The notes below the pieces were generated by a model. The model saw only the letters and a program-made list of their open reading frames with translations. It searched no databases and was not told the DNA's origin. A DNA stretch of 64,000 nucleotides from Elusimicrobiota bacterium (GTDB lineage Bacteria; Elusimicrobiota; Elusimicrobia; FEN-1173; JAKLIF01): NCBI GenBank assembly GCA_022709755.1, contig JAKLIF010000009.1:10694-74693 (forward strand). The letters run 5' to 3'. Within the stretch, counting starts at the first letter, position 1. Each line of letters begins with the position of its first letter. This document shows, in pieces, positions 44,479 to 64,000 of the stretch. The position numbers and the translations under genes are program-made.

Positions 44479-44496
44479 GGGAGTCAAATTCCAGAG

Positions 44497-44726: not shown

Positions 44727-44752
44727 GGCTCGGTGCTTCGAAAAAAATAATG

Positions 44753-44825
44753 TGCCGAGGGACGGAATCGAACCGCCGACACACGGTTTTTCAGACCGCT
44801 GCTCTACCGACTGAGCTACCTCGGC
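44753..44825 (-). tRNA. tRNA-Phe (anticodon GAA)
   Basis: Reverse complement: GCCGAGG TA GCTC AGTCGGTA GAGC A GCGGT CTGAAAA ACCGT GTGTC GGCGG TTCGATT CCGTC CCTCGGC A. 73 nt; CCA is not encoded. The acceptor stem is identical to that of tRNA-Thr. Confidence 0.9.
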
Positions 44826-46152: not shown

Positions 46153-46179
46153 TACTGGAAACCGAAGATGCCGCGCCCG

Positions 46180-47472: not shown

Positions 47473-47497
47473 CGTGCTTCCGCCGCTCCCAAGGAGA

Positions 47498-47929: not shown

Positions 47930-47970
47930 GCTCACGTTCCTCCTCGATTCGCAACAACCAACCGATTTCA

Positions 47971-48690
47971 TTATACCGCATATTTCTGTCGAAATCGCTC
48001 GCGATTCCTCTCAAAAAGCTCTTTCGTGTAATGACGGTTCTTCCCCGTGGTCCCGCGCCCGTGATGAAGGACATGAATCCCCGGATGCGCCCACAAATGA
48101 TATCCGGCCCGATGCGCCCGGACGGAAAGGTCCACGTCCTCCCAATAGGCGAAGAACGACTCGTCGAAACCGTTCAGCCCTTCGAAGAGATTCCGGGTGA
48201 CGTAATAGCAAGAACCGGGGATATATTCGGGGAAAGCCAAGCGCCGCGGTTTTTCCGGCATGTTTCGATAATGGGACAACGTATTGGACGGGGGATCCCA
48301 GGATCCCCCGCAAGAATCCAACCGGGTGCGATCCCGGACGAAATGGACCGCCGGAGCCAGCATGTCCACCCGTCGATCGCGCAGAAACCGATGAAGCGCC
48401 GGACGCGGATCCTCGGAAAGGACACAATCGTTGGAGAGGAAAAGAGCGTCGGGAGACGATCGGAACGCCGCCCTCAACCCCTGATTCGCCCCATATCCAT
48501 ATCCCCCGTTCTTTTCCAAGCGGAGCATCGGCAAAGAGGGATAACTCTCACGGATTCGGATCCAATGTCTCTCCTCGGACCCATTGTCGACCCAGAGGAT
48601 GTCCTTCGCTCCGATCCCGCATTCCAGACATGACTCCAAACAGGCCGTCGTCAATCGCGTCTTATTGAACGACAGGACGACAAAAATCAT
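47971..48690 (-). CDS. Glycosyltransferase family 2
   Basis: MIFVVLSFNKTRLTTACLESCL, ILWVDNGSEE and FLSNDCV (DxD-type position), plus a later YWEDVDLSVRA. Confidence 0.8.
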   Translation of the reverse strand: MIFVVLSFNKTRLTTACLESCLECGIGAKDILWVDNGSEERHWIRIRESYPSLPMLRLEKNGGYGYGANQGLRAAFRSSPDALFLSNDCVLSEDPRPALHRFLRDRRVDMLAPAVHFVRDRTRLDSCGGSWDPPSNTLSHYRNMPEKPRRLAFPEYIPGSCYYVTRNLFEGLNGFDESFFAYWEDVDLSVRAHRAGYHLWAHPGIHVLHHGRGTTGKNRHYTKELFERNRERFRQKYAV

Positions 48691-48720: not shown

Positions 48721-51285
48721 ATGATTTTATGTAAAATGAATCCCGATACGATTCCGACCATGAGATCACTCTTACGGCTCCGATTCCTCCGTCTCGCCGG
48801 CCCCCTCCTCTTCCTCTTGTCCTGGGCCGGCCCCGACACAAGCCGGGCCGCCGACATCCCGGCGGCCTCGCCCGTGAGTCTGGCCCCCGAGTTTCAGCCG
48901 CGCCCGATACGACTCCCGCCTCTGTTCTGGCACGAGAAGGACATCCGGGAGAGACAACGCCTCCTCATGGTGCTCATGCTCTACTGGGATTATCAGGAAG
49001 AGGCCAGTTCGCACAAACTCCTCCTCCCCGTCTTCTATCGATGGAAGGAGGAGGACAGAAGCCTGATCGTGTCCCTTCCCCTCTATTTATCATACAAAAG
49101 TCCGGATGATTATTGGACCCTGGCCGGACCGTTCTACCGTCACGACGACCCCCAACGGAAGCGAACGGCCCTCTTCCCCCTTTATTGGAGCACGAAGAAG
49201 AGCAACGGGGGACGCATGACGGTGGCTCTCCCTTTCGTCTTTTACGATTACTCCAATCCCCTTGAAAACCGCCGGGACTTCGTGTCCCCCTTCGGCTGGT
49301 TCCGGCAGCGCCCCTCCACCTCGACGGGTTTCCTGCTCAACTACTGGTGGAAGACGGAGAGTTCCTCCCGATTCAGGACGCTGTTCCCCGTCTATTGGCA
49401 TCTGTGGAGTCCCGGAGACAGACTGGACGTCTGGGGTTTATTCTATCGGCGGGAAACGGACGACAAGAAATGGGCGGGACTGTTCCCCCTGGCGGGGGCC
49501 GGATGGGGCCGGGGATTGGCGTCCCACTATCTCTTTCCGGTCTATTATTATTCACACGACGAGGACGAGACGGCCTTTGCCACGCTCCTGGCGAGCCGGA
49601 TCCGCTCGCCCGACTCGACGAAAGGGCACCTGGGACTCTACTATTACTCCGTCAATCCCGACGAACGGATCCACGGTCTCTTCCCGATCTGGCATCACAG
49701 CCGCTCCTCGGACGATTACAGCCGGCGCACGTGGTTCCTGCTCTATTACAGCCGGAAAGAAAACGATTCCCGTTTCCATACCCTGTTCCCGTTCTACGGT
49801 TACTGGGAATCCCCGGAGAAGAAACGGTTCCTCTCCTGGTTGTATCTCCGGACGGAACAGGAGGACACCGTCTCCGGCTGGGCCGGACTGTATCGATGGA
49901 AAAAAGAGGGGGCCGACGAGACCAACGTCTTCTTCCCCCTCTACTGGCATTTCTGGCGAGATCCGGACTGGGGATTGGACGTCTTTTTCCCGCTCTATCT
50001 GAGGTGGAGGGACGCCGATTCGTCTCTGACGGCGATCCCGCCGTTCCTCTGGCGGAAGAAGGGATCGCGCACGACCTGGAGCCTGTTCTTCCTGCTCTGG
50101 CGCGACCGGGACGCCGACCGGGGATTCACTACGATGTTCCCGCTCTTCCATTCCATGTACGACCCTCAACGCTCCCAGTTTTTCTCGCCCATCGCCTGGA
50201 GACGGAAGAGCCGCCTCTCGAGGGAAGGGATTGTGCCGCCCGTCTATTGGTATCGGAGCGCCGAGATCAAACGACTATTCGTGATCCCGGTCTATTGGAG
50301 CGTCCAACATCCGGAGAAAAGACTGCTCATCGTGCCGCCCTATTATTCCTGGAAGGATTTCGACAGCCGGATTTACGGCCTGTTCCCCCTCTGGGGACAC
50401 CATCGGGAGCAGGACCGGCATGGCGGCTACCTCTTCCCCTTCTATTGGTATTCCAAAAAGACGACGGGAGACGGTGTCTGGATCATCCCGCCTCTGTTGA
50501 CCTACATCCAGAAAGACCGGTCCGGCACGCCGGACTCGGCGCTCCACGTCCAATACCTGATCTTGGGCGATTATTCCAGGAAGAGAGAGGATCTCGAGCA
50601 CGGTTTTTTCCCCCTCTATAAATACGTCTCCTCTCCGGAACGAACGAACTTCTGGGCCCCGCGCATCCTGGCCCTGACCGCCTGGGACCGTCGCGGCGAA
50701 TCGCGCCAGGGATATTTTTTTCCCTACGCCTGGAAACGGGCCCCCGACCGCCGATGGGATTTTCTCTTCCCCCTCTGGTACCGCCACGACGAGACCCGTC
50801 TCGAAGACAACACCACGAGCCGGCTCCGCATCTTCTTCCCTCTCTATTGGAGTGGAACCAACACCCGGCGCGAATGGCGATATTTCGTTCCTCTCTACGC
50901 CCGTTTTTCCTCCGCACATGGAAACCGGTTCCGAGCCGTCACGCCCCTCTACATGAGCTATCAGAACGACCGGGGGAACAGGTTCCGGATGATCTTCCCC
51001 CTCTACTGGCGTTTTGCATCCGCGAAAAGGGATATCTCCATTTACGGGCCTTGGTACCGGACGACCGGCCTGAAGAACGGGAGGACGACGCGAACGGTCG
51101 GGTTGGCTCCCTTCTTCTCCAAGTCTTCGGCCGGGCCGGATGACAATTATTTCGAGCTTCTCGGAGGTCTGTTCGCGAGGGACGTGCAGGAAGGACAGCG
51201 TCGGTTCCGGTTCCTGTATTTCTTCTATACGAAACCGAAGCCGTTGGGCGATCCCGCCCGGAGCGCCCCTCCGTCCGCCGATTAA
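48721..51285 (+). CDS. Secreted aromatic-rich repeat protein (about 40 FPLYW-type units), unknown family
   Basis: 854 aa. Alternative starts are ATG 48736 or ATG 48760; the last gives a clean signal peptide MRSLLRLRFLRLAGPLLFLLSWAGPDTSRA. From aa ~60 to ~800, an ~18-22-aa unit recurs with the core hydrophobic-Pro-[LVFI]-aromatic: LFPLYWST, LFPVYWHLW, LFPVYYYS, LFPIWHHS, LFPFYGYW, FFPLYWHFW, FFPLYLRW, MFPLFHSMY, VIPVYWSV, LFPLWGHH, LFPFYWYS, FFPLYKYV, FFPYAWKR, LFPLWYRH, FFPLYWSG, FVPLYARF, VTPLYMSY, IFPLYWRF. Confidence 0.75.
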   Translation: MILCKMNPDTIPTMRSLLRLRFLRLAGPLLFLLSWAGPDTSRAADIPAASPVSLAPEFQPRPIRLPPLFWHEKDIRERQRLLMVLMLYWDYQEEASSHKLLLPVFYRWKEEDRSLIVSLPLYLSYKSPDDYWTLAGPFYRHDDPQRKRTALFPLYWSTKKSNGGRMTVALPFVFYDYSNPLENRRDFVSPFGWFRQRPSTSTGFLLNYWWKTESSSRFRTLFPVYWHLWSPGDRLDVWGLFYRRETDDKKWAGLFPLAGAGWGRGLASHYLFPVYYYSHDEDETAFATLLASRIRSPDSTKGHLGLYYYSVNPDERIHGLFPIWHHSRSSDDYSRRTWFLLYYSRKENDSRFHTLFPFYGYWESPEKKRFLSWLYLRTEQEDTVSGWAGLYRWKKEGADETNVFFPLYWHFWRDPDWGLDVFFPLYLRWRDADSSLTAIPPFLWRKKGSRTTWSLFFLLWRDRDADRGFTTMFPLFHSMYDPQRSQFFSPIAWRRKSRLSREGIVPPVYWYRSAEIKRLFVIPVYWSVQHPEKRLLIVPPYYSWKDFDSRIYGLFPLWGHHREQDRHGGYLFPFYWYSKKTTGDGVWIIPPLLTYIQKDRSGTPDSALHVQYLILGDYSRKREDLEHGFFPLYKYVSSPERTNFWAPRILALTAWDRRGESRQGYFFPYAWKRAPDRRWDFLFPLWYRHDETRLEDNTTSRLRIFFPLYWSGTNTRREWRYFVPLYARFSSAHGNRFRAVTPLYMSYQNDRGNRFRMIFPLYWRFASAKRDISIYGPWYRTTGLKNGRTTRTVGLAPFFSKSSAGPDDNYFELLGGLFARDVQEGQRRFRFLYFFYTKPKPLGDPARSAPPSAD

Positions 51286-52724
51286 GCGGGGGAGTCGGAT
51301 CTTTTTAAAACGAGGAAGTTCAGAAGAGCTTTCAACCCATCCGCCAACCGGAACAATTCGCGCCAAGACCGGATGCGACAGAGACGTCCGAGCATGTATC
51401 GAGGCCGCAGATAGAACGCCCGATACATCGCGCGGTACATCTCGAGGATCTCGTCGACGGACATCCCGTCGATCCGCATCACGGGTTTGGCCAGGTTGTA
51501 ATCATCCCAGTCATCGGTGAGCAGCCGTCCCTCGCGGCGCGCCTGTTCATACATCTCCGTGCCCGGGAACGGCGTGGTGATATTCACGACCAGGAGCTCC
51601 GGATCGAGTTCTCGGATGAAACGCATGTTCTCCAGGATCACCGCGCGGGTGTCCCCGGGGTTCCCTACCATGAACGCCAAGCGGCAATCGATCCCGGCCT
51701 GTTTGGTCCACGCCACGGCCCGGCGGATCTGATCAAGGCTGATCTCCTTCTTGACGTTCTTCAGGACTGTCTCGCTCGCATTCTCGACCCCGAACATGAT
51801 CTGATGGCATCCCGCCCGGCGCATGAGCCGGAGTTGATCCGGATCCACATGGTTGACCCGGGCGAAGCAGGTCCAAGTGGGCCGATGTGTCCCTTCCATC
51901 AGCAAGCGGCACAATTCCAGGATATTGTTCTTATTCAAAGTCAGCGTGTCATCATAGAACAGGATCTCCCGCACCCCATGGTTATCCATGAGATATCGTA
52001 TCTCCCGGTGGATCGTCGCGGCGCTCTTATAAACAACCTGGGGACCCAGCGTCTTATTGCAGAAGGTGCAATGCCCCGGACATCCGCGCGAGGTGACCAG
52101 GCTCATGGCCGGCAGGTTCTTGAACGTGCCTTTGGCTGGATAATAGCGTGAGATCGGCAACAGGTCATAGGCCGGCATGGGCAAGCCGTCCAGCCGGCCG
52201 ATCCTCGGACGTTCGGGATTCATGACGACCTCGTTTCCCCGCCGATAGGCCAGACCGGCGATCGTCTCGGGGGATCCCCCCGAGAGGAGTTCCGCCAGAG
52301 TGTATTCCCCTTCTCCGCGGACCACGTAGTCGACGAAACCGTTCGACAGGACTTCGGCCGTCTGAAACGTGGCGTGCACTCCGCCGAAGACGATCCGGGC
52401 GTCCGGATAGAACCGTTTCACGATCCGGGCGATATAATAGGCCTTCTTGACCGTCGGCGTCATGGCCGTCAACCCGACGTACCGGATCTCCGAATAGACC
52501 CGCTGATAGGAGCGGACGAAATACTCCTCGAACCCCTCCACCGACGGGCTCATCACGTTGCAATCCACCACGTCCACGGAGAACCCCGTCGACCGTACAT
52601 ATCCCGCCAATTCAGCCAGTCCCAACGGAGGGAAATTCGAACTGATCTGTTCCCAGATGGCTTCCGTGTTCTTGTAAAAGATCGGAGGCGATATCAACAG
52701 ACAATCCAAGGTTTTCGATGTCAT
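51282..52724 (-). CDS. B12-binding-domain (class B) radical SAM protein, 480 aa
   Basis: The N-terminal Rossmann-like region is CLLISPP...PPLGLAELAGYV...VGLTAMT...IVFGGVHAT. The CxxxCxxC triad is SRGCPGHCTFCNK (nt 52059-52082), followed by FYDDT, MFGVENAS and FMVGNPGDT. ATG 52724 forms an ATGA overlap with the upstream stop. Confidence 0.85.
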   Translation of the reverse strand: MTSKTLDCLLISPPIFYKNTEAIWEQISSNFPPLGLAELAGYVRSTGFSVDVVDCNVMSPSVEGFEEYFVRSYQRVYSEIRYVGLTAMTPTVKKAYYIARIVKRFYPDARIVFGGVHATFQTAEVLSNGFVDYVVRGEGEYTLAELLSGGSPETIAGLAYRRGNEVVMNPERPRIGRLDGLPMPAYDLLPISRYYPAKGTFKNLPAMSLVTSRGCPGHCTFCNKTLGPQVVYKSAATIHREIRYLMDNHGVREILFYDDTLTLNKNNILELCRLLMEGTHRPTWTCFARVNHVDPDQLRLMRRAGCHQIMFGVENASETVLKNVKKEISLDQIRRAVAWTKQAGIDCRLAFMVGNPGDTRAVILENMRFIRELDPELLVVNITTPFPGTEMYEQARREGRLLTDDWDDYNLAKPVMRIDGMSVDEILEMYRAMYRAFYLRPRYMLGRLCRIRSWRELFRLADGLKALLNFLVLKRSDSPA

Positions 52725-54961
52725 GGTCTTTTCCCCGGCTCCACCAATCCTCCCATCCAACGGAATTCGCACGGATACCGGCCCCGGTCATCGCGAAACC
52801 AAAACTGATCCGGATCCGGCAACATCTCGACGACCCGCGCCTCCGACGCCTTCAACAGCATGCGGGCGGCGGCCTCGATCAGAAAAAAATTCTTGAAATC
52901 CAACATCATGGGTTTGCGTTCCCCATAGGACTGAATGAACACGTGCCTCGGGAAGCCATAATCCCGCTGGAATCTCAGGAACTCCCGGAACAGGCGCAAC
53001 CCGTTCCCTCCGAAATCATATCGCCCCAAATCCTTCCGGTCAAGCAGCCACCGTTCCCGTTCCAACACGGCCTTCTCGATCTCGATCCGCGGACAATGTT
53101 TGGGAGAGAGTCCGGACAGATAGGCGTGGGGGTAACCGGCATGGGCGATCGATTTGCGCGCATGATATCCCGAAGCGATATCCATCGAATCATAGCGTTT
53201 CCCCCCCGGGGTCAGTTCAATGCCGATGCGGTCATCCTCAAAAATGACACGCGCCCGGCCCGACGGAACACCGCTCGGGCAGGACATCGGGACGGAACAC
53301 CGGTTGGCCGTCCCCACCAGATCGATGAAGTCCAAGAACGAGACATATCTGCAGAAACTCTGTCCGTCATAAAAATACCTATTATCCATGACATGCCCGT
53401 CGACCTCGCCGTAAAAGCGCCGGGCCTTCTCCTCCAGATCCCCCAACGCCTCTTTTCCCCACGCATAGATCAGGCGAAAATAGACCGGGATCGCCTGGGA
53501 ATCATAATCATACTCTCCCAAAACCCAGCGGTATTCCCCCTTGGCGATATCCTCCGCGTCGCCCGCCGCGACGAACAGGTCCCAAAAACTCGCGACGGAA
53601 ACCTTCCCGATCCCCTCCCGTTCGAGCAGTCCGTCCAAAAAATCAAAATCGGACAGACGGCATCGGACCCGATGGGCGTCCATCTTCCCGCTGAACAATT
53701 TTTCCATGTGCTTGCTGATATCGATGTGGATCCGTTCCCCCGAGGGGGATGGTCCGGGATATTTCTTCCGGAACGATTCCAGAACCTCCACGATCTCATT
53801 CCACCAGACGGCCCGGCGGCCCGGCGGATATTGATCCTTCAAAAAGGCGGCCACGTCCCGGGCCCGGGCGACCGTATGCAACAGATACATCTTCCAATGG
53901 ACGGACATCCACTTTTCCACATCCCGTCCGAGTTCGCCCCCGATCCTCATGTCGACGTTCCTCTCCGCGAGATCGAAGAAGAGTCGGCGTCCCATCAATA
54001 TCCGTCCGCTCCCCTCCCGCTCCCCTTCTTCTCCGGTGACGGATTTAAAATATCCCATCAACTCCTCTTCCAGCCGGATTTTCTCGCCGAGCGGCTTCTC
54101 GGACCACAAATCCCCATATCGCCGGAAGCGCCCCAGCACTTGTTCCCAATGGTCTTTCCTCGGGCAATCCGCCGGGAGTCCCCGGACCCAGTCGGACAGG
54201 TCCTCCAACGCATTTCGGCGGCCATGACAGATATAAAGGCCCGAGGAGAGTATCCCGTTGGTGAACAGTCCATCCCACGCGACTCCCGGATCTTCCCCTG
54301 TCCGCCTCAACGCGCGCCGGGTCGTCCCTCTCTCGGAAAGTGCCACCCACTTCAGCTCGTCTCCGGTCAAACCGGGGGAGAGATCGATGTCATTCCTGAA
54401 AAGACGTCCATGATCCATCCGCAATTCCGGATTCAACCGTATCGGCAGATCTTCCTTCAATCCCTCGTCCCGATTCATGGCCTCGGCCAACGCCGCAACG
54501 GCCCACGTTTCCATGAAGGCGACGCGGGGTCGGATCCATCTCCCCGGCTTTTGGACGATCCGGAGGTTGGCCTGCTGTCCTTGGTCATTTCGCCCCCAGA
54601 ACACCGGGCCGAAGTAGGAGTGATTCTCGTTCTTCGCGCAGAAACGCTGCAGATACGAAATGAGAGTGATCTCGCGCTGTCTCATCCGGCTGTTGCGATT
54701 CGGGATCTCTCCTGCGACGATGTTCCGCCCATAGAAACCCCTGTTCTGCAGATAGAGTGCTTCTCGGACATCGGGCCGGAGAAACGTCTCGTAGAGCAGT
54801 CGCCGTTTCTCCTCCAACTCCTCGTGAAAGGGCCTCTCGTCCTCTGTCCCGGCCTGCAACAGGGCATACGTCCGATCGAAGGAGAGCCGGCCGAGCAGCT
54901 CATATTCGATTCCCGTCGACCTGACGATGAACTCAGGCAAGAACTCCCATTTCCCCGTCAT
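52721..54961 (-). CDS. LanB-N-terminal-like (lantibiotic dehydratase glutamylation-domain / PEARL-like) protein, no elimination domain
   Basis: 746 aa from ATG 54961 (ATGA overlap). The N-terminal FLPEFIVRSTGIEYELL matches the LanB f.vR.P.lp pattern. ISYLQRFCAKNENHSYFGPVFWG (nt 54593-54655) matches LanB kYl.R...R.TPFGlF.G. The C-terminal GFPRHVFIQSYGERKPMMLDFKNFFLIE...VVEMLPD matches LanB glPryv.l..gDneL.ldL.n......l...l.E. The protein ends there. By-eye similarity; no HMM was run. Confidence 0.55.
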   Translation of the reverse strand: MTGKWEFLPEFIVRSTGIEYELLGRLSFDRTYALLQAGTEDERPFHEELEEKRRLLYETFLRPDVREALYLQNRGFYGRNIVAGEIPNRNSRMRQREITLISYLQRFCAKNENHSYFGPVFWGRNDQGQQANLRIVQKPGRWIRPRVAFMETWAVAALAEAMNRDEGLKEDLPIRLNPELRMDHGRLFRNDIDLSPGLTGDELKWVALSERGTTRRALRRTGEDPGVAWDGLFTNGILSSGLYICHGRRNALEDLSDWVRGLPADCPRKDHWEQVLGRFRRYGDLWSEKPLGEKIRLEEELMGYFKSVTGEEGEREGSGRILMGRRLFFDLAERNVDMRIGGELGRDVEKWMSVHWKMYLLHTVARARDVAAFLKDQYPPGRRAVWWNEIVEVLESFRKKYPGPSPSGERIHIDISKHMEKLFSGKMDAHRVRCRLSDFDFLDGLLEREGIGKVSVASFWDLFVAAGDAEDIAKGEYRWVLGEYDYDSQAIPVYFRLIYAWGKEALGDLEEKARRFYGEVDGHVMDNRYFYDGQSFCRYVSFLDFIDLVGTANRCSVPMSCPSGVPSGRARVIFEDDRIGIELTPGGKRYDSMDIASGYHARKSIAHAGYPHAYLSGLSPKHCPRIEIEKAVLERERWLLDRKDLGRYDFGGNGLRLFREFLRFQRDYGFPRHVFIQSYGERKPMMLDFKNFFLIEAAARMLLKASEARVVEMLPDPDQFWFRDDRGRYPCEFRWMGGLVEPGKRP

Positions 54962-57228
54962 CGCTCCAATCCCCCCATCCACCGGAACTCCGCCGTATAG
55001 CGGCCTCGTTCATCCTGAAACCACAAGTGTTCGGGATCGGGAAACATCTCCACGATCCGAACCCGTTCACACTTTTTGATCATCTTCGCGAGGACTTCGA
55101 TCAGGAAATAATTCTGGAAATCCAGCAACACCGGTTTCCGCTCCCCGTGGACGCGCACAAACACGTGCCGGGGAAATCCATGATCCCTCCGGAACCGGCT
55201 GAACTCGCGCAGAAGGTCCAGCCCCCGCCGTCCGAAGTCATAGGCCCCGAGGTCGTCCCGGTTCAGTAGCCACTGTTCCCGTTGCAAGACGGCCTTTTCG
55301 ATCTCGATGCGCGGGCAATGTTTCGGCGATACTCCGGCCAGATACGCATGGGGATAGACCAGGTCTCCCAGAGCTCCCTGCCCCATCGAATCCCATTTTA
55401 GGTCCACCGATTCACAGAGGGATCCGTCCGTCGCGTTCCGTATCAGGATCCGCCCGCCACGGACGACGGCTTGGAGCTCCCCGGCGGGGGTCCTGTTCGC
55501 GCAACGCACGGGCAGACTGCATCGTGTGGTCTCATCGACGATATCGGCCCCCTCGATCGCCACATACCGAAAAGGCTGTTTCCCGTCATAGTAGCACCGG
55601 AACGCATACCGCTCCCCGCCCCCCGTGTATCGACGGAGATACCGGGTCAAATCCCGCGGCGAGCCCCGCATCCAGGCGAAGGCGATGTAGTGATTCGAAA
55701 ACAGAACATCCGTCTTATAATGATGCTCACCGAGAACCCACTGATAATTCCCTCTTTCAATCTCTCGCCGATTTTCGGCGGACAAAAGGATGTCCCAGGA
55801 AACCGCGAACCGTTCCGACAAGACACCTTCCGAGGCGATCATGTCATCCAGAAAATCAAAGTCAGCCAGGCGGCAGGAGATGACATGCCCGTCCATCCGC
55901 GTCCCGAACAACCGTTCCATCCTCTTCGTGATCTCCAGATGAATCCTCTGTCCGGACGGGGTATGGGCCGGATGAGAGCGCTGATATTCCTCCCACTTCC
56001 CGATCAATTCCCCCCACCACACGTTCCCCCTTCGCCCGTCGATATAGTCTTTCAGATAACCCCGGGCGTCCCTCACACGCGCCATCGTCTGCAACAGGCA
56101 CAGCTTCCAGTGGACCGACAGCCACTTTTCCACGTCGCGGCCCAATTCCCCGCCGAGGGTCAACGCCGCATTCCGGTGGGCTTCCTCGAAATACAACCGA
56201 CGGCCCACATAGATCTTGCCGCTCGTCTCCCGGACCGCCCGTTCACCCGTCAGTTGGGCGAAATCGTCCATCATCTTCTGTTCCAGGGCGATTTTATCTT
56301 CCAACGATCGAGCGGCGATTTCTTTTTCAGCCTTCCGGAACCGCCCCAGCACGCCGAGCCAATGGCGCCGTCGAGGATGTATCCTTGGGAGATCCTTAAC
56401 CCATTGGATCAGTTCACCCAATGAATCCGCCCTTCCGCGGCAAACATAGAGCCCCTGGGTGAGCAAACCCTTGGCAATCACGCCGGCGAGAGCCGCCCGG
56501 ACTCCTTCTTCTCCCGACGAGGGAGCCAAAGCCCGTTGAACACCGCCGACCGTGCCCCCCCCGGCGGCCAATGACAAGCAGGCGCATTCGATCCGGCTCA
56601 ACCGCCCCGTGAGATCCTCCTCCGCCCGATAGACATGCCCCCGTGAGATCCTCAGATCGTGAGCGAGCCGGATCGGCAGGAATTCCCGAAGGGCCTCATC
56701 GGAACCGATCGCGCGGGCCAACGCCTCGACGGCCCACGTCTCCATAAAAGCCCGACGTTTCTTCAACCACCCGCCGACACCCCTCGTCAACCGCAAGGAT
56801 GCCGTCGCCTTCCCGCTTCGTTTCCCCCAAAAAATCGGACCGAAATAGGCATGTGTCTCATTCTTGCCGCAGAAGCGCTGGAGATACAGGATCAACTTAT
56901 TGTCCGTCACCCGATCATGCTTATTCCTCGTCCTCTTCCCATCGTTTTCAAAATCCTTCATCATCCGCCGATAGACGCCGCTGTTCTGCAAATAGACGGC
57001 CTCCCCCAGATCGGCTCGCAGGAAAATCCCGTGGAGCGCCTTCTGTTTGTCCGACAATTCATCGCGGAATATACGGGCGATCTTCTCCTCGTCGACACAA
57101 GAAGCCGCCCCCCGTATCCCCTCCCACGCGCGATAGGTTTTATCGAATGAAAACCGCTCCATCAACTCATACTCCATCCCGGTCGTGCGCACCACGAATT
57201 CGGGCATGAAGCTCCACCGGGATTTCAT
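54958..57228 (-). CDS. LanB-N-terminal-like protein, paralogue of 52721..54961
   Basis: 756 aa from ATG 57228 (ATGA overlap). It is collinear with its neighbour along the whole length: FMPEFVVRTTGMEYELM, ILYLQRFCGKNETHAYFGPIFWG, GGELGRDVEKWLSVHWKL, HAYLAGVSPKHCPRIEIEKAVL, GFPRHVFVRVHGERKPVLLDFQNYFLIE and RYTAEFRWMGG. Confidence 0.55.
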   Translation of the reverse strand: MKSRWSFMPEFVVRTTGMEYELMERFSFDKTYRAWEGIRGAASCVDEEKIARIFRDELSDKQKALHGIFLRADLGEAVYLQNSGVYRRMMKDFENDGKRTRNKHDRVTDNKLILYLQRFCGKNETHAYFGPIFWGKRSGKATASLRLTRGVGGWLKKRRAFMETWAVEALARAIGSDEALREFLPIRLAHDLRISRGHVYRAEEDLTGRLSRIECACLSLAAGGGTVGGVQRALAPSSGEEGVRAALAGVIAKGLLTQGLYVCRGRADSLGELIQWVKDLPRIHPRRRHWLGVLGRFRKAEKEIAARSLEDKIALEQKMMDDFAQLTGERAVRETSGKIYVGRRLYFEEAHRNAALTLGGELGRDVEKWLSVHWKLCLLQTMARVRDARGYLKDYIDGRRGNVWWGELIGKWEEYQRSHPAHTPSGQRIHLEITKRMERLFGTRMDGHVISCRLADFDFLDDMIASEGVLSERFAVSWDILLSAENRREIERGNYQWVLGEHHYKTDVLFSNHYIAFAWMRGSPRDLTRYLRRYTGGGERYAFRCYYDGKQPFRYVAIEGADIVDETTRCSLPVRCANRTPAGELQAVVRGGRILIRNATDGSLCESVDLKWDSMGQGALGDLVYPHAYLAGVSPKHCPRIEIEKAVLQREQWLLNRDDLGAYDFGRRGLDLLREFSRFRRDHGFPRHVFVRVHGERKPVLLDFQNYFLIEVLAKMIKKCERVRIVEMFPDPEHLWFQDERGRYTAEFRWMGGLER

Positions 57229-59375
57229 GGGCGGCCCCAGACACGAACCGAAACCATCGAATCGCCATCGTAACAACTACCGACTTCAGGACTCATCATG
57301 GAGCGGACATCGACATCGATCGTTTCAATCCTTCGCGCTCCCCGTTGTTTCATCCCCGTATCGACGGCCTCCCAGTCCCCTCCCCGGAGACCGCCGGCCC
57401 AATCCATCCACACGACGACACCGTCCGCCGGCAGGACGTCCATACCCCAATCCAACACGTTATCGAAGACGCCTCCCCCCGATAACCGATCCAAGAGGCC
57501 AGCCGCCACGATCGCGCCGTACTTTTTCCCGAGAGGCTGGCGAATCAACTCATCCAATGGAGTGATCCTCACATTCCCCCAAACCGAGCTGAGCATCAAC
57601 AAATAGGCTTCGTCGAAATAGTTGTCCGTCAAACTGACGCCATCGACTCCATATCCGCCCAGCCTCAACTCTCCGACGGCCGACACGACATTTTCCCCCA
57701 GCAACAGGTATTCCACTCCGACTTCCGGCACCGAGGGATAGACCTTCTTCAGGAGGACCGCCATGAAATCCCGCATCACATACTTCCTCATCTCCGCACG
57801 GATCTGGCGCAGTCCAGGTTCCACCACCCGACTGCCGGGAGGAGTCGTCTCCTTAAGGAATCCAGCCAGCGTCCGAAACAGGGACAATCTCTTTCGCAGG
57901 GGAATCGAATACTCATTGCCATAATCCGCCAATTCGTTGTAATCCGTCAAGAAACCGTCGGAACCGTCCCATTCCTTCTCTTTCCGGAGCCGCCCGATGA
58001 ACTCCTCACAGACGCTCCAGGATCGTTGCGGACCCGCCGCCGTTCCCATGTCCTTCAATATCTTGAGAGCCCCCGGCGTCATTTGAACGAACTTAAAATA
58101 TCGCTGCATGTCGACCGTCTGCTCCACTTCCCGAGAAGAATAGGTGGATGAAGACGAAAAAGAATTGGCGCCATCCTCAGTGTATCGATAACTGTAATGA
58201 TCTCGCCGGTTCCAAAGAAGGGTCCCGGGATATAAGCCGGTCTGATGAACGATCATTTTTCCGACAGGATGAGAGAGGGCCCAATCCATCATGTTCGCAT
58301 GTTTCCCCGGACTATCTCCCGGCAGTCCGAACATGAAATGGGTCTGTATCCTGAGCGACGGGGCCTCACGGCCCAGCCGCCCCAAAGTATCCTCCACGCG
58401 GCGAAGATGGAAGGAGCGGCCGACGGCCCGATGGATCTCCGGGTCGACGGCCTGTATCCCCAACGACAACTCCATATTCCGCACATTCAAATGCGGCAAA
58501 AGTTCGGATGAGATATTCTCGGGGTTTCCGATCATCCGGATCAAGACATCCCGACCACTGGACAATTTTTTAAATTCCCCGAGGAATTCGATCAGATATT
58601 CCGGACTCATATAGGGGTCTGCCGCCGAAAGATAAAAATATCCCTTTCCCTTCTTCGCAAGGATATACTCTATCTCGGACAAGATGCGGTGTGTCGAAAA
58701 ATACCGGGGTTTTTGCCGGCTCCAACTGCAATAGGCGCATCCGATGGGACACCCACGTGCCATTTCGACGATATAGGTCAAGCGGTCGTATTCCGACAAA
58801 TCGATGCCGCCCGTGAGATAGACCGAAGGAATATCATCCAGGGACCCCGACAAGAGGCGCTGTTCCGTCTTCCGATAACGATTCCCGTCCCAAAACACGA
58901 CCCCCCGGATCTTCTCACAACAGAGTGCCCCTTGGAGATGCGCCCCCACTATTTCCGAGAACGCTGCTTCCCCCTCGCCTTGCACCGCCACATCGAACCA
59001 TTTTTCAGTCTCGGTCTCCTCGACTCCCCAGGCACAGGGGCCTCCGATGACGAGCGGGACGCTCCTATTCCGAACCCTCAATGCTTTCGCCACCTTTTTC
59101 ATCGCAGAGAAATTCCACACATAACATGAAAGACCGACCAAATCCGGATCCAGGGAGACGATCTTTTCGACATACTGATCGATTGAGAGCGGGGCGCTGA
59201 AATCATCCTCCACGATCCGGACGTCGCAATCCCCTCCTCCGGGCGCCCGATCCCTCACATAAGCGGCCATGGTTCTCAATCCCATCAAGGGGATCCCGCG
59301 ACGCGCCCTCGTTCCCGCCAACACCGCCCTGTATTTATTCATCGACCCGATGACTCTCAATCGATTTTCCGCCAT
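57225..59375 (-). CDS. Class B radical SAM protein with C-terminal degenerate methyltransferase-like domain (paralogue 1, most divergent)
   Basis: 716 aa. B12-domain-like segments are DLVGLSCYVWN and LVIGGPCAWG. The triad is ARGCPIGCAYCSW (nt 58728-58751), followed by FMFGLPGDS. The tail is EYLLLGENVVSAVGELRLGGYGVDGVSLTD ... LPADGVVVWMD. Confidence 0.8.
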   Translation of the reverse strand: MAENRLRVIGSMNKYRAVLAGTRARRGIPLMGLRTMAAYVRDRAPGGGDCDVRIVEDDFSAPLSIDQYVEKIVSLDPDLVGLSCYVWNFSAMKKVAKALRVRNRSVPLVIGGPCAWGVEETETEKWFDVAVQGEGEAAFSEIVGAHLQGALCCEKIRGVVFWDGNRYRKTEQRLLSGSLDDIPSVYLTGGIDLSEYDRLTYIVEMARGCPIGCAYCSWSRQKPRYFSTHRILSEIEYILAKKGKGYFYLSAADPYMSPEYLIEFLGEFKKLSSGRDVLIRMIGNPENISSELLPHLNVRNMELSLGIQAVDPEIHRAVGRSFHLRRVEDTLGRLGREAPSLRIQTHFMFGLPGDSPGKHANMMDWALSHPVGKMIVHQTGLYPGTLLWNRRDHYSYRYTEDGANSFSSSSTYSSREVEQTVDMQRYFKFVQMTPGALKILKDMGTAAGPQRSWSVCEEFIGRLRKEKEWDGSDGFLTDYNELADYGNEYSIPLRKRLSLFRTLAGFLKETTPPGSRVVEPGLRQIRAEMRKYVMRDFMAVLLKKVYPSVPEVGVEYLLLGENVVSAVGELRLGGYGVDGVSLTDNYFDEAYLLMLSSVWGNVRITPLDELIRQPLGKKYGAIVAAGLLDRLSGGGVFDNVLDWGMDVLPADGVVVWMDWAGGLRGGDWEAVDTGMKQRGARRIETIDVDVRSMMSPEVGSCYDGDSMVSVRVWGRP

Positions 59376-59392
59376 CGCACGACCGCCGAACG

Positions 59393-59424
59393 GGACAAAT
59401 GAACCGTCGACGGTTCATTTGTCC
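59393..59424. repeat. Perfect 32-bp palindrome (16+16, centred on GTCGAC) at the junction between two radical SAM genes
   Basis: ggacaaatgaaccgtc|gacggttcatttgtcc, verified base by base. It covers the TGA stop (59415-59417) of the upstream gene and ends 18 nt before the ATG (59375) of the downstream gene. No U-tract follows it on the coding (minus) strand. Confidence 0.95.
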
Positions 59425-61532
59425 TTCTCCCACAAGAATGAAGACACCCCCGACGCGACCGGTCGGGAAGCGATATATCTGTACCCCAGGGTTTTCAAAA
59501 TCTCCGGGAAACGCTGTCCCCCGTCCGCGTAAACCGCGTCCCGCTCCAGAAAAATCATCGAACCTCCGACCGCCAGTCCGTTCACTTTATCGACCGATCG
59601 GGGATCCCGGGACAATCTCTCCCACATCTCCTCAAAAATGACGGTCCGCCGGTTCTCTTCGGGAAGCGCGGCTCCGAGGGCCGCATAATCCAGGACACGG
59701 ACCGCATCCCATTGACGGCTATACGCCAATTGCAGTATCGACTGATGGGCCTTTTCCGTCAGATCCAATCCCCGCAACGTCCACCCCTCGCCGTTCAAAA
59801 TCTCCACTGTCCTCACCAGGTCACTCCCCACCAACAGGGCCGCAGGAACCCCCGTCTCCCCTTCCGCAATCTTCTTAAGATACCCCGGCAATTCCATCAA
59901 CCACTCGTAACGACGCCGCTGTCGATCGATGATCGCCCGCCAATGGCCCGGCGGCAAACCGAACTCCCCTTCAAGAGACTCGCCATACCCCTTCAGTCCC
60001 TTGAGAACTTCCACCCGCTCCTCCAGGGTGAACGTATTCTCTCCCCCATAATAAAGGCCCCTCCGGCTCCAGTCCATCTCCCGTCGCCGGTCGAGGCTTT
60101 CGCTCATATTTCCCCGCTCTCCGGTCAGATATTCTTTTAATTTTTGATACAGGACCACGTTGGCGTTCCGAATTCGTCCCGACAGGGCTCGTCCCCATCC
60201 CGCCAGCAACGACCTTACGACGGGAATCGTCCTAAACAGATCGATGTATAACCCAAGTTCCTGGGCTCGATCCAGATCCCCTCTGGAGAAGGTGGGGGTC
60301 TCCATGACCTGGTTGAACAAACGCGGTTCATATTTCAATCCATATTCGTCGCGCTTTTCCCACAGTTCCGTTCCGGGCAGCAACCATGTCCGATACACGA
60401 TGATCTGGTTCACATCGAACGACAGACACCAATCCAGCATGTCGATGAACGCCTCGTAAGTGTCTTTCGGCAACCCGAGCATGATCTGAAGCGAGATATC
60501 GGCCCGGGTCAGCTTCGGCAACAGCCGTGACAGTTTCGTCTCTGCTTGCGCCTTGTCGAAACGGCGGGAGATGACCCGCAGCACTTCTGGATTGATGTTT
60601 TGAATGCCGAACGCGAGACGGATCCGAGGGGAATCCATCCAAGCGGTCATCTCCTCCTTCAAATGGAAGAGGTTCCCGGTCAGAGCCAGGACGACGTTCT
60701 TATCAGGGGCCAGCGTCGCAAAGCGGTCGAGGATGGACTTAAAATACTCCCCGTTCATGAACGGATCCGAATCGATGACGGTGATAAATCCCTTCCCCCG
60801 TTCGCGCAGGACATGTTCCATCTCCGCCATCACTCTGTCACCCGAAAAATATCTGGGGCGCTGACCATTGCCGGGACGCTGACAGAACGCGCATGAAAAG
60901 GGGCATCCCCTGGACGTCTGGATGAAGTTGGAGACGGACCGGGCTTTTTTCAGGTCGATCCCCCCGTCGAGATAGGGAGATGGGATGTCATCCAGAGTCC
61001 CGATCGGAGGGCGCGCAGGCGACTCGATGATCCGGTTGCCTTTCCGATACGCCAATCCGGCGACCGACGACTCGTCCTCGTCGTCCCCCCACCGCCGGAG
61101 CAGTTCCGCGAAGGTCACCTCTCCCTCTCCGCGCACGACCACATCGGCCCAGGGCGTCTCCCTCAAAACGGCGGCGGCGTCATAGTCGACATTCGGCCCC
61201 CCCAATACGATCTTGGCCGTCGCGTTTCGATCGCGCACGAGTCGACCGACGGCGTCCACTCCCGGCATGTTCCCGATATAGCATGAAAACCCGATGATAT
61301 CGCCGCCCTTCAACACATCCGCCACCCGCTCCACCTCTCCATCGCGGCGGCAGGAGAATTCCTCGACGACGATTTCATAACGGGCCCTGATGCGTTCGTC
61401 GGACATCGCGTAGGCGCGCAGATAGGCCAAGCTGAGGAATGGAGGCCAATGATCCCCCGAATACATGCCGACCAAAAACACCTTTTTACGCCGGGGCGGC
61501 CCCTGTCGGCGCGCTCCTTCCCGTTTCGTCAT
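59415..61532 (-). CDS. Class B radical SAM protein with C-terminal degenerate methyltransferase-like domain (paralogue 2)
   Basis: 705 aa with KKVFLVGMYSG...FLSLAYLRAYA, DIIGFSCYIGN and IVLGGPNVDY. The triad is SRGCPFSCAFCQR (nt 60882-60905), followed by IMLGLPKDT. The tail is ALLVGSDLVRTVEILNGEGWTLRGLDLTE ... LAVGGSMIFLERD. Confidence 0.8.
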   Translation of the reverse strand: MTKREGARRQGPPRRKKVFLVGMYSGDHWPPFLSLAYLRAYAMSDERIRARYEIVVEEFSCRRDGEVERVADVLKGGDIIGFSCYIGNMPGVDAVGRLVRDRNATAKIVLGGPNVDYDAAAVLRETPWADVVVRGEGEVTFAELLRRWGDDEDESSVAGLAYRKGNRIIESPARPPIGTLDDIPSPYLDGGIDLKKARSVSNFIQTSRGCPFSCAFCQRPGNGQRPRYFSGDRVMAEMEHVLRERGKGFITVIDSDPFMNGEYFKSILDRFATLAPDKNVVLALTGNLFHLKEEMTAWMDSPRIRLAFGIQNINPEVLRVISRRFDKAQAETKLSRLLPKLTRADISLQIMLGLPKDTYEAFIDMLDWCLSFDVNQIIVYRTWLLPGTELWEKRDEYGLKYEPRLFNQVMETPTFSRGDLDRAQELGLYIDLFRTIPVVRSLLAGWGRALSGRIRNANVVLYQKLKEYLTGERGNMSESLDRRREMDWSRRGLYYGGENTFTLEERVEVLKGLKGYGESLEGEFGLPPGHWRAIIDRQRRRYEWLMELPGYLKKIAEGETGVPAALLVGSDLVRTVEILNGEGWTLRGLDLTEKAHQSILQLAYSRQWDAVRVLDYAALGAALPEENRRTVIFEEMWERLSRDPRSVDKVNGLAVGGSMIFLERDAVYADGGQRFPEILKTLGYRYIASRPVASGVSSFLWEKDK

Positions 61533-61592
61533 GCCGGATATCTCATCCTTTCACTTTTCGCAACAGCCTATCAGCCATAACTGTTCCCGCCA

Positions 61593-63734
61593 TCAACTCT
61601 TCTGGAGGATACGCATCACCGGAGCAGGACCGTCTCCCGCTGAATCCCCCCGAAAGCGGTCATTCTTGACATCGATATATCCGCTCTCCGACAGGCGATC
61701 CTCGATCCCCGATCTCTGTCCCGTCACGTTACTGTCCCGAATAAAAACAACAGTCCCTTGCGCTACCAGATTGGCATCGATATAGGCCTTTATCCCGTCC
61801 ATCCACGCTTTCTCGCCATAATCCCGTCCCGTCAGATCCACCAGGATCAAGTCCCGAAGGCCCTCCGACCGTAGAGTCGGCAGATCCGCGGCACAGACCA
61901 CGCGGACTTTATCCCAATGGCGGCTCAGGATCAGAGCTCTGGTGGCATAATAGGGACGGTCAGTCGTATCGATCCCCTCGATACCGAGACCTTCATCCCC
62001 CAATTGATCTATGACCGGGTAGATGTCCGCGCCCAGGAATACGGGTCGTGAAACGGAGGAGCCCTCCTCGGGCCCCTTCCAGCCGGAGAGAATACTCCGC
62101 ACCCAGTCGGGCCGACGATGGTTCCACTCATACCGTTTTCTCTCGATCTTGATCGATTCTTCTATCGAAGGCCAGTGGGCCTCCGACTGATGCCGGATCA
62201 GCAGGAGACGGGCGTATTCAGACAGTTCCTTCAGCAGCGCTATCCGCAAATCATGCTCCAGTGTCGCTTCGTTTCCCCAATAAACTCCCCGCCGGCTCCA
62301 ATCCATCGCATGATCCAGAGACAACCGCTCCGCCACCGGTGACCCGGGACGCATCGTGTATTCCAAAAATTGTTCGTACACGGCCAGATAGGAGTGTTCC
62401 ATCCGTCCTTCCAATATCCCGCCCAATTCCCCCAGGATCCGTTTAACCATGGGCAGGGTGCGGAAAAGATTGATATAGGTGCCGACACGGAACGCCTGAT
62501 CCATCTCCTTTCGAGGGAAAGTGGCGGTCTCATATATCTCATTCAGTGATTTCGGTTCGTGTTGGAGCCCGTAATCCCCACGAATATCCCACATCCCGCT
62601 CCCGGGCAGGAGATTCGTCCTAAACACGGACACCTCCGGCATTCTCCATGACAAACCCCAATTGAGGCTCTGGCGAAAACCTTCGGGAGTATCCCCCGGC
62701 AACCCGAGCATGAAATGAAGTATCTTCAGGCTCTTGGGAGATTGCTCGTCGATTTTCCGCAACACTGCCTCGGTTTTTCCCTTGTCGAAACCGCGCGTCA
62801 CGATCTTCAGACATTCCTTATTGGTGCTTTGGATGCCCAACGCGAGGATGATCTGAGGGGAATCCGTGGCAGGCAACAAACCGTCCTTGATATGGATGGG
62901 GTTCCCGTTCGCCAACAGGAGCGCGTTCCTCCCTTTCGCCATCGACAAAAATCCGCTCAATATCTTTCGATAGTGGCTCTCGTTCATGAACGGATCCGCT
63001 TCGATCAACACGAAAACCCCCTTCCCTCTCTTCCGGAGGATATATCTCATCTCCTCCGTTACCCTGTCGATCGGAAAATAGCGGGGTTTATGACGTTGAC
63101 CGGGGCGCTGACAATATTTACATGAGAACGGACAGCCCCTGGAAACCTCGATAAAGTTGAAGACCGTTCCCACGTGATCCAAATCGATCACCCCGGTCAG
63201 ATAGGGGGACGGAAAACGGGACATATCGTCAGGGATCGGACGGTCCTCCGTCGACCGGACATCCTCTCCATCACGAAAAGTCAGTCCCTTGATCGCGCTC
63301 AGTCCCCCGGATCCCATCCTCGCTTTGATCAGTTCCAAAAACGTCTCTTCTCCATCCCCCCTCACCACCATATCCGCCCACGGCGAATTCCCCAGCACCC
63401 CGGCGGGATCCGCATAGGCACTGGGGCCGCCTAGCACGATCTCGGGAGAATCGGGACTCGCTCCCAACAGCCGCCCCACGGTTTGGACCTCGTCCATATT
63501 CCAGATATAGCACGTGAACCCGATCAGATCCGGCTTCTCCGCCATCACCCCGGACACGATTGATGCGGGACCGGTATCCTTATCATAAAAATATTCCTTG
63601 ATGACGATCTCGCATCCGTCCCGCACCGCCGCATCGGCCATGGCGTACGCCTTCAAACTGGGCAAACTCAGGAAGAGATGCCCGCGTTGGGTCTGGATCC
63701 CGACCAACACGATCTTCATCTTCCGCAAGTTCAT
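61593..63734 (-). CDS. Class B radical SAM protein with C-terminal degenerate methyltransferase-like domain (paralogue 3)
   Basis: 713 aa from ATG 63734 (ATGA overlap with the upstream stop; the track start is 63755). It has MKIVLVGIQT...FLSLPSLKAYA, DLIGFTCYIWN and IVLGGPSAYA. The triad is SRGCPFSCKYCQR (nt 63111-63134), followed by FMLGLPGDT. The tail is VFLGADIYPVIDQLGDEGLGIEGIDTTD ... VAQGTVVFIRD. Confidence 0.8.
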   Translation of the reverse strand: MNLRKMKIVLVGIQTQRGHLFLSLPSLKAYAMADAAVRDGCEIVIKEYFYDKDTGPASIVSGVMAEKPDLIGFTCYIWNMDEVQTVGRLLGASPDSPEIVLGGPSAYADPAGVLGNSPWADMVVRGDGEETFLELIKARMGSGGLSAIKGLTFRDGEDVRSTEDRPIPDDMSRFPSPYLTGVIDLDHVGTVFNFIEVSRGCPFSCKYCQRPGQRHKPRYFPIDRVTEEMRYILRKRGKGVFVLIEADPFMNESHYRKILSGFLSMAKGRNALLLANGNPIHIKDGLLPATDSPQIILALGIQSTNKECLKIVTRGFDKGKTEAVLRKIDEQSPKSLKILHFMLGLPGDTPEGFRQSLNWGLSWRMPEVSVFRTNLLPGSGMWDIRGDYGLQHEPKSLNEIYETATFPRKEMDQAFRVGTYINLFRTLPMVKRILGELGGILEGRMEHSYLAVYEQFLEYTMRPGSPVAERLSLDHAMDWSRRGVYWGNEATLEHDLRIALLKELSEYARLLLIRHQSEAHWPSIEESIKIERKRYEWNHRRPDWVRSILSGWKGPEEGSSVSRPVFLGADIYPVIDQLGDEGLGIEGIDTTDRPYYATRALILSRHWDKVRVVCAADLPTLRSEGLRDLILVDLTGRDYGEKAWMDGIKAYIDANLVAQGTVVFIRDSNVTGQRSGIEDRLSESGYIDVKNDRFRGDSAGDGPAPVMRILQKS

Positions 63735-64000
63735 GCGGCCCCCCCCCGACTCCACACGTCGGCCGACACCTGTTTCCCGGCGGATTCGCCGATCACGGCT
63801 CTCTCCACCCGATGAAATCCCAGGCGACCGACTATTTCCTCAGACTCGTTCTCTGGCGCCGGATCATCCGGGCCGATGAAAGCCAAGCATCCCCCGGAGG
63901 ACAAGACATCCCCCACGGACGCCAAAGTTTCCCGAAGGGACCTATCCCGTTTGAGTCGCTCCGCCATCCCCTCGACGATGACCGCTGGATACCGTTCGGA
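63731..64000 (-). CDS. 3' end of a gene continuing beyond the window; its C-terminus resembles the methyltransferase-like tails of the downstream radical SAM paralogues
   Basis: The reverse frame is open from 64000 down to the TGA at 63731 (...PERYPAVIVEGMAERLKRDRSLRETLASVGDVLSSGGCLAFIGPDD...). LSSGGCLAFIGPD aligns with LAVGGSMIFLERD and VAQGTVVFIRD. The track lists only the internal Met at 63967. Confidence 0.6.
   Translation of the reverse strand, partial: SERYPAVIVEGMAERLKRDRSLRETLASVGDVLSSGGCLAFIGPDDPAPENESEEIVGRLGFHRVERAVIGESAGKQVSADVWSRGGAA

Follow-up and report, generated by a model that had tools for sequence, protein, structure and literature searches.

What does a bacterium make with an operon that sets a series of class B (cobalamin-dependent) radical S-adenosylmethionine (rSAM) enzymes beside proteins resembling the N-terminal domain of the lantibiotic dehydratase LanB? 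The question is raised by a 64,000-nucleotide stretch of Elusimicrobiota DNA (contig JAKLIF010000009.1, positions 10,694 to 74,693 of the forward strand; the whole stretch is called the window below), whose minus strand carries such an operon from the right-hand edge down to position 51282. The original prediction, made from the sequence alone, saw here four rSAM enzymes and two LanB-like enzymes without an elimination domain, taken to tailor a peptide. Our analysis favors, at a rough probability of 0.6, a pearlin-type cluster in which ligation by peptide aminoacyl-tRNA ligases (PEARLs) is combined with C-alkylation and hydrolytic release. Domain content, operon structure, PEARL signature residues, and the structural kinship of the rSAM enzymes are the observations behind this reading, and from them we infer the chemical steps, their order, and the product. 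PEARLs are recently recognized enzymes that make amide bonds from aminoacyl-tRNA, and cobalamin-dependent rSAM enzymes are responsible for C-H alkylations that rank among the most difficult in nature.

Seven consecutive genes of the operon fall in the window. The first, at 63731..64000, is partial and comprises the C-terminal 89 codons of a 710-aa protein, the third of six rSAM paralogues of ~700 aa; its remainder lies past the window end, and a full copy on an identical contig (L004:7872-10004) carries both the B12-binding domain PF02310 and the radical SAM domain PF04055. It overlaps by ATGA the gene for paralogue 4 (61593..63734), a 713-aa class B enzyme consisting of a B12-binding domain (PF02310, E 9e-13), a radical SAM core (PF04055, E 5e-15; CPFSCKYC at 63111-63134), and a C-terminal extension of ~290 aa. 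Paralogue 5 (59415..61532, 705 aa; CPFSCAFC at 60882-60905) and paralogue 6 (57225..59375, 716 aa; PF02310 E 9e-16, PF04055 E 4.5e-13; CPIGCAYC at 58728-58751) carry the same two domains. They are followed by LanB-like 1 (54958..57228, 756 aa), LanB-like 2 (52721..54961, 746 aa), and, as the last gene, a 480-aa class B rSAM enzyme of HpnJ/BchE-like type (51282..52724; PF02310 E 1e-21, PF04055 E 2e-21; CPGHCTFC at 52059-52082). All seven genes lie on the minus strand, and the six complete ones start with ATG, end with a stop codon, and contain no internal stops. The CxxxCxxC triads lie at residues 201, 210, 209, and 215 of the four complete rSAM proteins. ATGA overlaps form four of the junctions, among them those coupling rSAM paralogue 6 to LanB-like 1, LanB-like 1 to LanB-like 2, and LanB-like 2 to the 480-aa enzyme, and the remaining gaps measure 39 and 60 nt. 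The original prediction had placed all six complete genes and all four triads exactly and had described the junctions correctly except for the larger gap, given as 58 nt.

How complete is the pathway in this view? The window holds the downstream two-thirds of a biosynthetic cluster of ~27 kb. An exact-protein look-up revealed the same operon on seven contigs, four places being returned as loci, and the seven loci retrieved from five contigs are 100% identical in DNA to the window wherever they share sequence, up to 12.4 kb, indicating one clonal population that was assembled repeatedly. Since all retrieved loci are identical, a ratio of nonsynonymous to synonymous substitution rates (dN/dS) is impossible to obtain. 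Sequence upstream of the window was taken from loci reached via the rSAM paralogues. With this sequence added, the full cluster contains seven genes with PF02310 and PF04055 (the six ~700-aa paralogues, three of which start beyond the window, and the 480-aa enzyme) and three genes with PF04738 but without PF14028. The predicted count of four rSAM and two LanB-like genes is thus correct within the window and a lower bound for the cluster. The rSAM operon itself comprises nine codirectional genes, joined by ATGA overlaps or by gaps of at most 60 nt.

The next question is whether the LanB-like proteins are dehydratases or PEARLs. PF04738 (Lant_dehydr_N) matches proteins 1 and 2 with 48.4 and 47.6 bits (cut-off, 28), the match of the third, 756-aa paralogue (L028:4161-6431) being marked as weak, and PF14028 (Lant_dehydr_C/SpaB_C) finds nothing at E ≤ 0.01 in the 746- to 756-aa proteins, leaving each with a glutamylation-like domain only. 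LanB-like 2 is 48% identical to LanB-like 1, and the third paralogue is 37 to 38% identical to both over its C-terminal third. A word-indexed search returned five homologues, and a profile search run exhaustively over 1.84 billion representatives returned 1754 relatives at E < 1e-30. The best 150 of these 1754 are nearly all full-length matches in stand-alone proteins of 708 to 901 aa, with a few fused to modules of nonribosomal peptide synthetases (NRPS), indicating that the family is large and without elimination domains. When the profile of LanB-like 1 was searched against the PDB, the only solved matches were split LanBs, namely TbtB (6EC7, E 2e-12) and the goadsporin enzyme. The adenine-binding residues R743 and F783 of TbtB (chain index minus 3) are aligned with R650 and F690.

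The residues that distinguish the two enzyme types could be approached through this anchor. In TglB, whose relevant residues are D542, E564, E801, and R803, Asp542 and Arg803 occur only in PEARLs, split LanBs having Tyr and Leu at these places, and in BhaB7 the residues Y205/R208 serve the 3'-CCA end of the tRNA and D558, R715, F755, E813, and R815 serve ATP (PMC11117183, PMC11962472). In an alignment of 152 sequences, R14, R118, N123, R343, D479, R650, K698, D703, E747, and R749 are invariant, and Y115 (150/152), F690 (146/152), and H503 (97%) are nearly so; H503 has been described as highly conserved in PEARLs. D479 and E747-x-R749 (152/152) fit the PEARL-specific Asp and Arg, and Y115/R118 fit the CCA-binding Tyr-x-x-Arg of BhaB7, both by an indirect mapping, for the former via the TbtB anchors and spacing. 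The spacing agrees with BhaB7 at Tyr to Arg (3 residues), R650 to F690 (40), F690 to E747 (57 versus 58), and Glu to Arg (2); R343 lies 225 residues after R118, the BhaB7 counterpart R429 lying at 221, and D479 to E501 spans 22 residues, equal to D542 to E564 in TglB. All three paralogues carry the PEARL signature residues. Judged by these residues, the LanB-like proteins appear to be of PEARL type rather than dehydratase type, a more specific form of the LanB-like assignment in the original prediction.

The same data bear on an alternative in which the three proteins act as split LanBs, that is, as Glu-tRNA-dependent Ser/Thr glutamylases whose products are converted to dehydroamino acids by a separate elimination protein, while the rSAM enzymes methylate a ribosomal peptide of proteusin-like or thiopeptide-like character. 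PF04738 is after all the N-terminal family of lantibiotic dehydratases, sequence matches to solved structures are limited to TbtB and the goadsporin enzyme, and the cluster proteins share with TbtB (6EC7/6EC8) the fold family and the adenine-binding Arg and Phe. Multisite C-methylation of ribosomally synthesized and posttranslationally modified peptides (RiPPs) by several class B rSAM enzymes is also established, as in polytheonamide and bottromycin. We nevertheless consider this alternative unlikely, as neither the Pfam annotation of the ~27-kb cluster nor the scan of ~50 window open reading frames (ORFs) shows a PF14028 gene, so that no elimination partner is in view; the closest 150 family members stand alone; and no precursor gene was found in the searched sequence. 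Moreover, where split LanBs have Tyr and Leu, the present family has an invariant Asp and an invariant Arg (PMC11117183).

The assignment of the rSAM enzymes to class B is straightforward. PF02310 scores 48 to 77 bits (cut-off, 32.1) and PF04055 scores 50 to 77 bits in the four complete window proteins, all above the gathering score with E values on the order of 1e-13 to 1e-21, and the three upstream paralogues carry the same annotation. Both this result and the PF04738 matches without PF14028 are exactly what had been forecast for the window proteins. The other ~700-aa paralogues are 28 to 44% identical to paralogue 1, paralogue 6 being the most divergent (28%), and in the alignment of all six the CxxxCxxC triad is invariant and all cluster and glycine motifs are kept. 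No named NCBIfam family, however, reaches its cut-off for any of the rSAM proteins. The best match of the ~700-aa proteins is KedN5 (88 to 162 bits against a cut-off of 700); the RiPP C-methyltransferase family rSAM_ocin_1 scores 47 to 115 bits (cut-off, 282), and the 480-aa enzyme scores 224 bits with HpnJ (cut-off, 578) and 209 bits with BchE (cut-off, 481). By these scores, the window proteins fall outside the named subfamilies KedN5, rSAM_ocin_1, HpnJ, BchE, PhpK, and ApyD, and the 480-aa enzyme belongs to a subfamily different from the ~700-aa set, nearest to HpnJ and BchE.

Agreement with the class B fold was examined for paralogue 5, whose AlphaFold2 model is of good quality (pLDDT, for predicted local distance difference test, 88.6; predicted template modeling score [pTM], 0.86). 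Its best Foldseek matches in the PDB are TokK (7KDX, E 6e-28) and CysS (9N1B, E 3e-27), with TsrM (1e-16), OxsB (3e-15), and MgmA further down. TokK and CysS are iterative cobalamin-dependent C-methylases acting on pantetheinylated small molecules in the carbapenem and cystobactamid pathways; they share with paralogue 5 the domain order of B12 Rossmann domain, radical SAM barrel, and helical domain over ~600 aligned columns, at a sequence identity to the window proteins of 19 to 22%. Unlike them, the ~700-aa proteins carry an extra C-terminal Rossmann-like domain of ~145 residues. In the model of paralogue 5 this additional beta-alpha-beta domain spans residues ~560 to 705, and it is probably the source of the weak Foldseek matches (E about 3e-5) to class I SAM methyltransferases. 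At the position of the GxGxG loop the paralogues read G-[SRAE]-[DN]-[IVL]-[VY], and the C-terminal ~290 aa gave no Pfam match at E ≤ 10; with the loop altered and Pfam blank, the C-terminal module is probably a degenerate, noncatalytic methyltransferase fold, as suggested by the weak structural matches and a visual comparison of motifs.

Where else does this architecture occur? A phmmer search with the C-terminal ~290 aa returned only paralogues from the same genome, and relatives of ~730 to 760 aa in other phyla have a comparable C-terminal tail, as judged by eye. The combination of a class B core with a C-terminal Rossmann-like domain thus appears to be shared with uncharacterized multi-rSAM clusters of other phyla. 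These clusters (L029, L030, L031, and the P0010 contig) often alternate the ~700-aa B12 type with a type of ~320 aa; their other genes encode HxsD, aminotransferases, or a set of P450, desaturase, and CMAS proteins, and one of the relatives is annotated as Elusimicrobiota. They look like uncharacterized pathways of their own.

Several accessory genes complete the cluster beyond the window. The upstream operon is headed by the gene for a 974-aa right-handed beta-helix protein, inside which the retrieved sequence ends (L028:2-1720; the last 572 residues, made up of PF13229 repeats and a tail, are visible). It is followed by genes for a DUF1611/DgcN-like protein, a glutamine-synthetase-family ligase (Gln-synt_C, E 2e-81), the third LanB-like paralogue, a GT4-like protein, and a cytoplasmic protein of the PBP4B/beta-lactamase fold. 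Between this operon and the codirectional rSAM operon lies, in antisense orientation, a gene for a 250-aa Amidase_6 protein (L028:8480-9232), after which come the six ~700-aa rSAM genes, the two LanB-like genes, and the 480-aa rSAM gene. The Amidase_6 gene has a 4-nt overlap with the PBP-like gene at the latter's end, and only ~55 nt remain before the first rSAM gene; with this spacing, the promoter of the rSAM operon must lie inside the Amidase_6 gene, or transcription must read through it. The tail of the beta-helix protein carries the motif GG-R-DIDL and in sequence looks like a Pol-beta-type nucleotidyltransferase.

How might these proteins work together? In the proposed pearlin-type pathway, the three PEARL-type enzymes would phosphorylate a carboxylate on a carrier with ATP, and the amino group of an aminoacyl-tRNA would then attack the activated carboxylate, so that up to three amino acids could be added by amide bonds. 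Each of the six TokK/CysS-like paralogues, responsible for its own site or step, would place a methyl or larger alkyl group on unactivated carbons of the added residues, and the seventh, HpnJ/BchE-like enzyme would perform a distinct radical step. The glutamine-synthetase-like ligase and the DgcN-like and GT4-like proteins could provide further decoration, and the PBP4B-like hydrolase, the Amidase_6 protein, or both would release the product, probably a heavily alkylated amino acid or peptide.

Several findings weigh against this reading. The PEARL signature residues were mapped indirectly, the TbtB alignment ending 14 residues before E747 and, when the C-terminal 120 aa were used as a phmmer query, again stopping short of the E-x-R motif, and the AlphaFold2 model of LanB-like 1, built on a five-sequence alignment, is poor (pLDDT, 50.6). 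In place of the near-invariant His503, LanB-like 2 has Asp and LanB-like 3 has Asn, with the other invariant residues kept; this may point to paralogues that handle nucleotide or substrate differently. Methyl transfer is only the most likely chemistry, because the rSAM scores fall far below all named NCBIfam cut-offs. The cluster is known from a single clonal population, which puts co-conservation beyond reach, and the ~700-aa rSAM relatives elsewhere sit in multi-rSAM clusters without LanB-like genes. Finally, inspection of small ORFs in the window and in 9.3 kb preceding the first rSAM gene found no scaffold or precursor gene, and none is visible in about 73 kb of contiguous sequence, made up of the window and about 9 kb past its end.

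The evidence of these neighborhoods could mean that the rSAM and LanB-like genes are merely adjacent and serve separate pathways, with the rSAM array tailoring, for instance, a lipid or a cofactor. This would agree with the P450, fatty acid desaturase, CMAS, HxsD, and aminotransferase genes found around the nearest rSAM relatives and with the likeness of the 480-aa enzyme to HpnJ and BchE. It is very unlikely, however, given the ATGA coupling of both window PEARL genes to each other and to an rSAM gene on either side, and since the third PEARL paralogue lies on the other side of the array, the LanB-like genes bracket and interleave with the rSAM genes.

What, then, is the carrier of the pearlin-type pathway? 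Inside the ~27-kb cluster no intergenic gap exceeds 60 nt. The small ORFs inspected across the window include none that is scaffold-like, and neither the window nor the 9.3 kb before the first rSAM gene has a small ORF with coding potential. Elimination domains, LanC cyclases, and ABC exporters are absent from the cluster genes and from the ~50 window ORFs given a Pfam scan, which covered all but two small predicted ORFs. The original prediction had reported the precursor, elimination domain, cyclase, protease, and exporter of a RiPP pathway as missing; past position 64000 there is still no precursor, elimination domain, cyclase, or exporter, but candidate releasing hydrolases, the Amidase_6 and PBP4B-like proteins, lie just outside the window. 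Because no substrate gene was found, peptide tailoring is still something that we infer. At slightly less than an even chance, the carrier is a ribosomal scaffold peptide whose gene lies past the sequence seen here, the region upstream of the beta-helix gene being the likeliest place, or at another site in the genome. A small-molecule or short nonribosomal acid, by analogy with the sinefungin and sna pathways, is an option that we rate as substantial yet short of even odds. The prediction had itself allowed for a substrate that is not a ribosomal peptide, and analogous cases in the literature make this plausible (PMC11212132; bioRxiv 10.64898/2026.05.21.726688). An Rfam scan of the window found two tRNA genes and no riboswitch; these genes, for tRNA-Thr(CGU) and tRNA-Phe(GAA) at 44496-44569 and 44752-44825 on the minus strand, lie ~6.5 kb downstream of the cluster, and their proximity to genes of tRNA-dependent enzymes is treated here as coincidence, although a link is possible.

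A more tentative extension of the small-molecule option is that assembly is scaffold-free and independent of both ribosome and NRPS: the three PEARLs would extend a small-molecule acid, perhaps supplied by the glutamine-synthetase-like and DgcN-like enzymes, with a short tail of amino acids, and the six rSAM paralogues would alkylate different unactivated carbons to give a poly-C-alkylated peptide. In that case the fusion of a TokK-like core with a degenerate domain of methyltransferase fold would represent an undescribed rSAM architecture and the product would be unlike characterized pearlins. This we regard as possible but doubtful.

Is the combination of enzymes, which the original prediction did not recognize from any characterized cluster, without precedent? 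It is not. In the tmo cluster of Tistrella mobilis, the PEARL TmoB and the cobalamin rSAM enzyme TmoD act together, TmoD carrying out C-isopropylation on the scaffold TmoA (PMC9303977). The likeness extends from an elimination-domain-less PEARL, through a cobalamin rSAM enzyme alkylating an unactivated carbon, to release by a hydrolase. In contrast to the single PEARL, single B12 rSAM enzyme, adjacent scaffold gene, and TglHI-like and S-methyltransferase genes of tmo, the present cluster has three PEARL-like and seven B12 rSAM genes, the ~700-aa rSAM enzymes with an extra C-terminal domain, and no visible scaffold gene or MNIO/TglHI homologue. In the sinefungin (sin) cluster of Streptomyces incarnatus, SinB1 and SinB2 act directly on a small molecule and a RiPP-like peptide is dispensable (bioRxiv 10.64898/2026.05.21.726688), which makes this cluster, combining PEARLs with a B12 rSAM enzyme, a precedent for the missing scaffold gene. 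The sin cassette, however, has nine genes, with one B12 rSAM enzyme (for adenosyl transfer), an arginase, a kinase, and a phosphatase, and none of these accessories is found here; its host is an actinomycete, whereas ours is an uncultured bacterium bearing lipopolysaccharide (LPS).

Two further systems complete the comparison. In the sna pathway, a PEARL extends the product of an NRPS-polyketide synthase (PKS) assembly line (PMC11212132). The amm and bha pyrroloiminoquinone clusters have four to seven PEARLs each (PMC11117183, PMC12715798), resembling the present cluster in having several paralogous PEARLs, which in those pathways act in sequence on one carrier; they differ in their flavoprotein, oxidase, and halogenase tailoring and adjacent precursor gene (AmmA or BhaA), and they have no array of class B rSAM enzymes. 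With the tmo, sna, and sin precedents, the cluster is less surprising than first judged. What is new is its scale (three PEARL-like and seven class B rSAM genes), the rSAM architecture, the accessory set (glutamine-synthetase-like, DgcN-like, GT4-like, PBP-like, and Amidase_6), and the uncultured diderm host. Literature searches for a combination of three PEARLs with seven rSAM enzymes found nothing, and a single translationally coupled operon of this content would be the most rSAM-rich PEARL cluster that we found described. Its six naturally diverged TokK/CysS-like paralogues offer material for studies of site selectivity, and the cluster as a whole offers a test of scaffold-free PEARL action in nonactinomycete anaerobes. 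Its value is that of a genome-mining target, and current understanding is not overturned.

Searches with the LanB-like proteins also brought up a different association. A homologue search with a 262-aa fragment of the third LanB-like protein gave no matches, and contig scans with the LanB-like queries returned only actinomycete fusions of NRPS modules with LanB_N domains, at ~30% identity. In the one locus given a domain scan (L005:4955-10813, from the Saccharothrix/Actinosynnema set), a module of ~1950 aa with Condensation, AMP-binding, and PP-binding domains is fused to a full-length Lant_dehydr_N domain, and its gene adjoins further NRPS modules and a flavin monooxygenase gene. The other 16 loci (L006 to L020 from Saccharothrix/Actinosynnema and the metagenomic L021) were found by the same C-terminal tblastn match. 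By analogy, the fusion resembles the NRPS-associated PEARLs of the sna cluster, but covalently joined.

The surroundings of the cluster bear on one last alternative, in which the enzymes extend and alkylate the C terminus of a full-length protein, such as one of the neighboring proteins (secreted repeat or beta-helix type), or act on a component of the envelope. At 51282 the operon ends in a 4-nt overlap with the stop codon of a convergently oriented gene (48721-51285, plus strand) encoding an 854-aa signal-peptide protein with roughly 25 degenerate FPLYW/FPVYW repeats, for which NCBIfam gives a weak match to LA_1737_Cterm (E 2e-10, below cut-off). The cluster is thus flanked by this repeat protein on one side and by the 974-aa beta-helix protein on the other, genes for GT2, GT4-like, Wzy_C, and LPS proteins are nearby, and tagged proteins are extended by BhaB7 (PMC11962472). 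Since the repeat protein gene is convergent, it is not cotranscribed with the operon, which weakens the case; the LPS and Wzy genes are set apart from the cluster by housekeeping genes and look like ordinary chromosomal context, and no relative of the cluster exists in which the association could be tested. We therefore consider modification of a protein or envelope component improbable.

The remainder of the window is the ordinary chromosome of an LPS-bearing bacterium. Its envelope genes (985-23168 and 38284-43795) encode LpxK, a Kdo transferase, two heptosyltransferases of glycosyltransferase family 9 (GT9), a lipid A acyltransferase, and GT4 and GT2 proteins, and the presence of these lipid A and LPS genes indicates that the host is diderm. 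Weak matches to UPF0164 and LA_1737 point faintly toward Spirochaetota and are given no weight here. Two tandem Wzy_C proteins resembling O-antigen ligases, of 798 and 1023 aa, have long tetratricopeptide repeat (TPR) tails. Housekeeping genes include those for SecDF, Tgt, RuvAB, YebC, and a BepA-like M48 protease. A gene at 47498-47971 (minus strand), flanked by those for GT2 and the M48 protease, encodes a 157-aa protein without a Pfam match, with a very Lys-rich N-terminal half and a small, beta-rich C-terminal half. Two long ORFs are antisense shadows of other genes: one of 760 aa (52718-55000, plus strand) lies opposite LanB-like 2, and one of 458 aa (46168-47544, plus strand) lies opposite the M48 protease gene. 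The latter has no Pfam match, whereas the sense genes match strongly. Such shadow ORFs are typical of DNA of ~60% GC and are a trap for gene calling by length.

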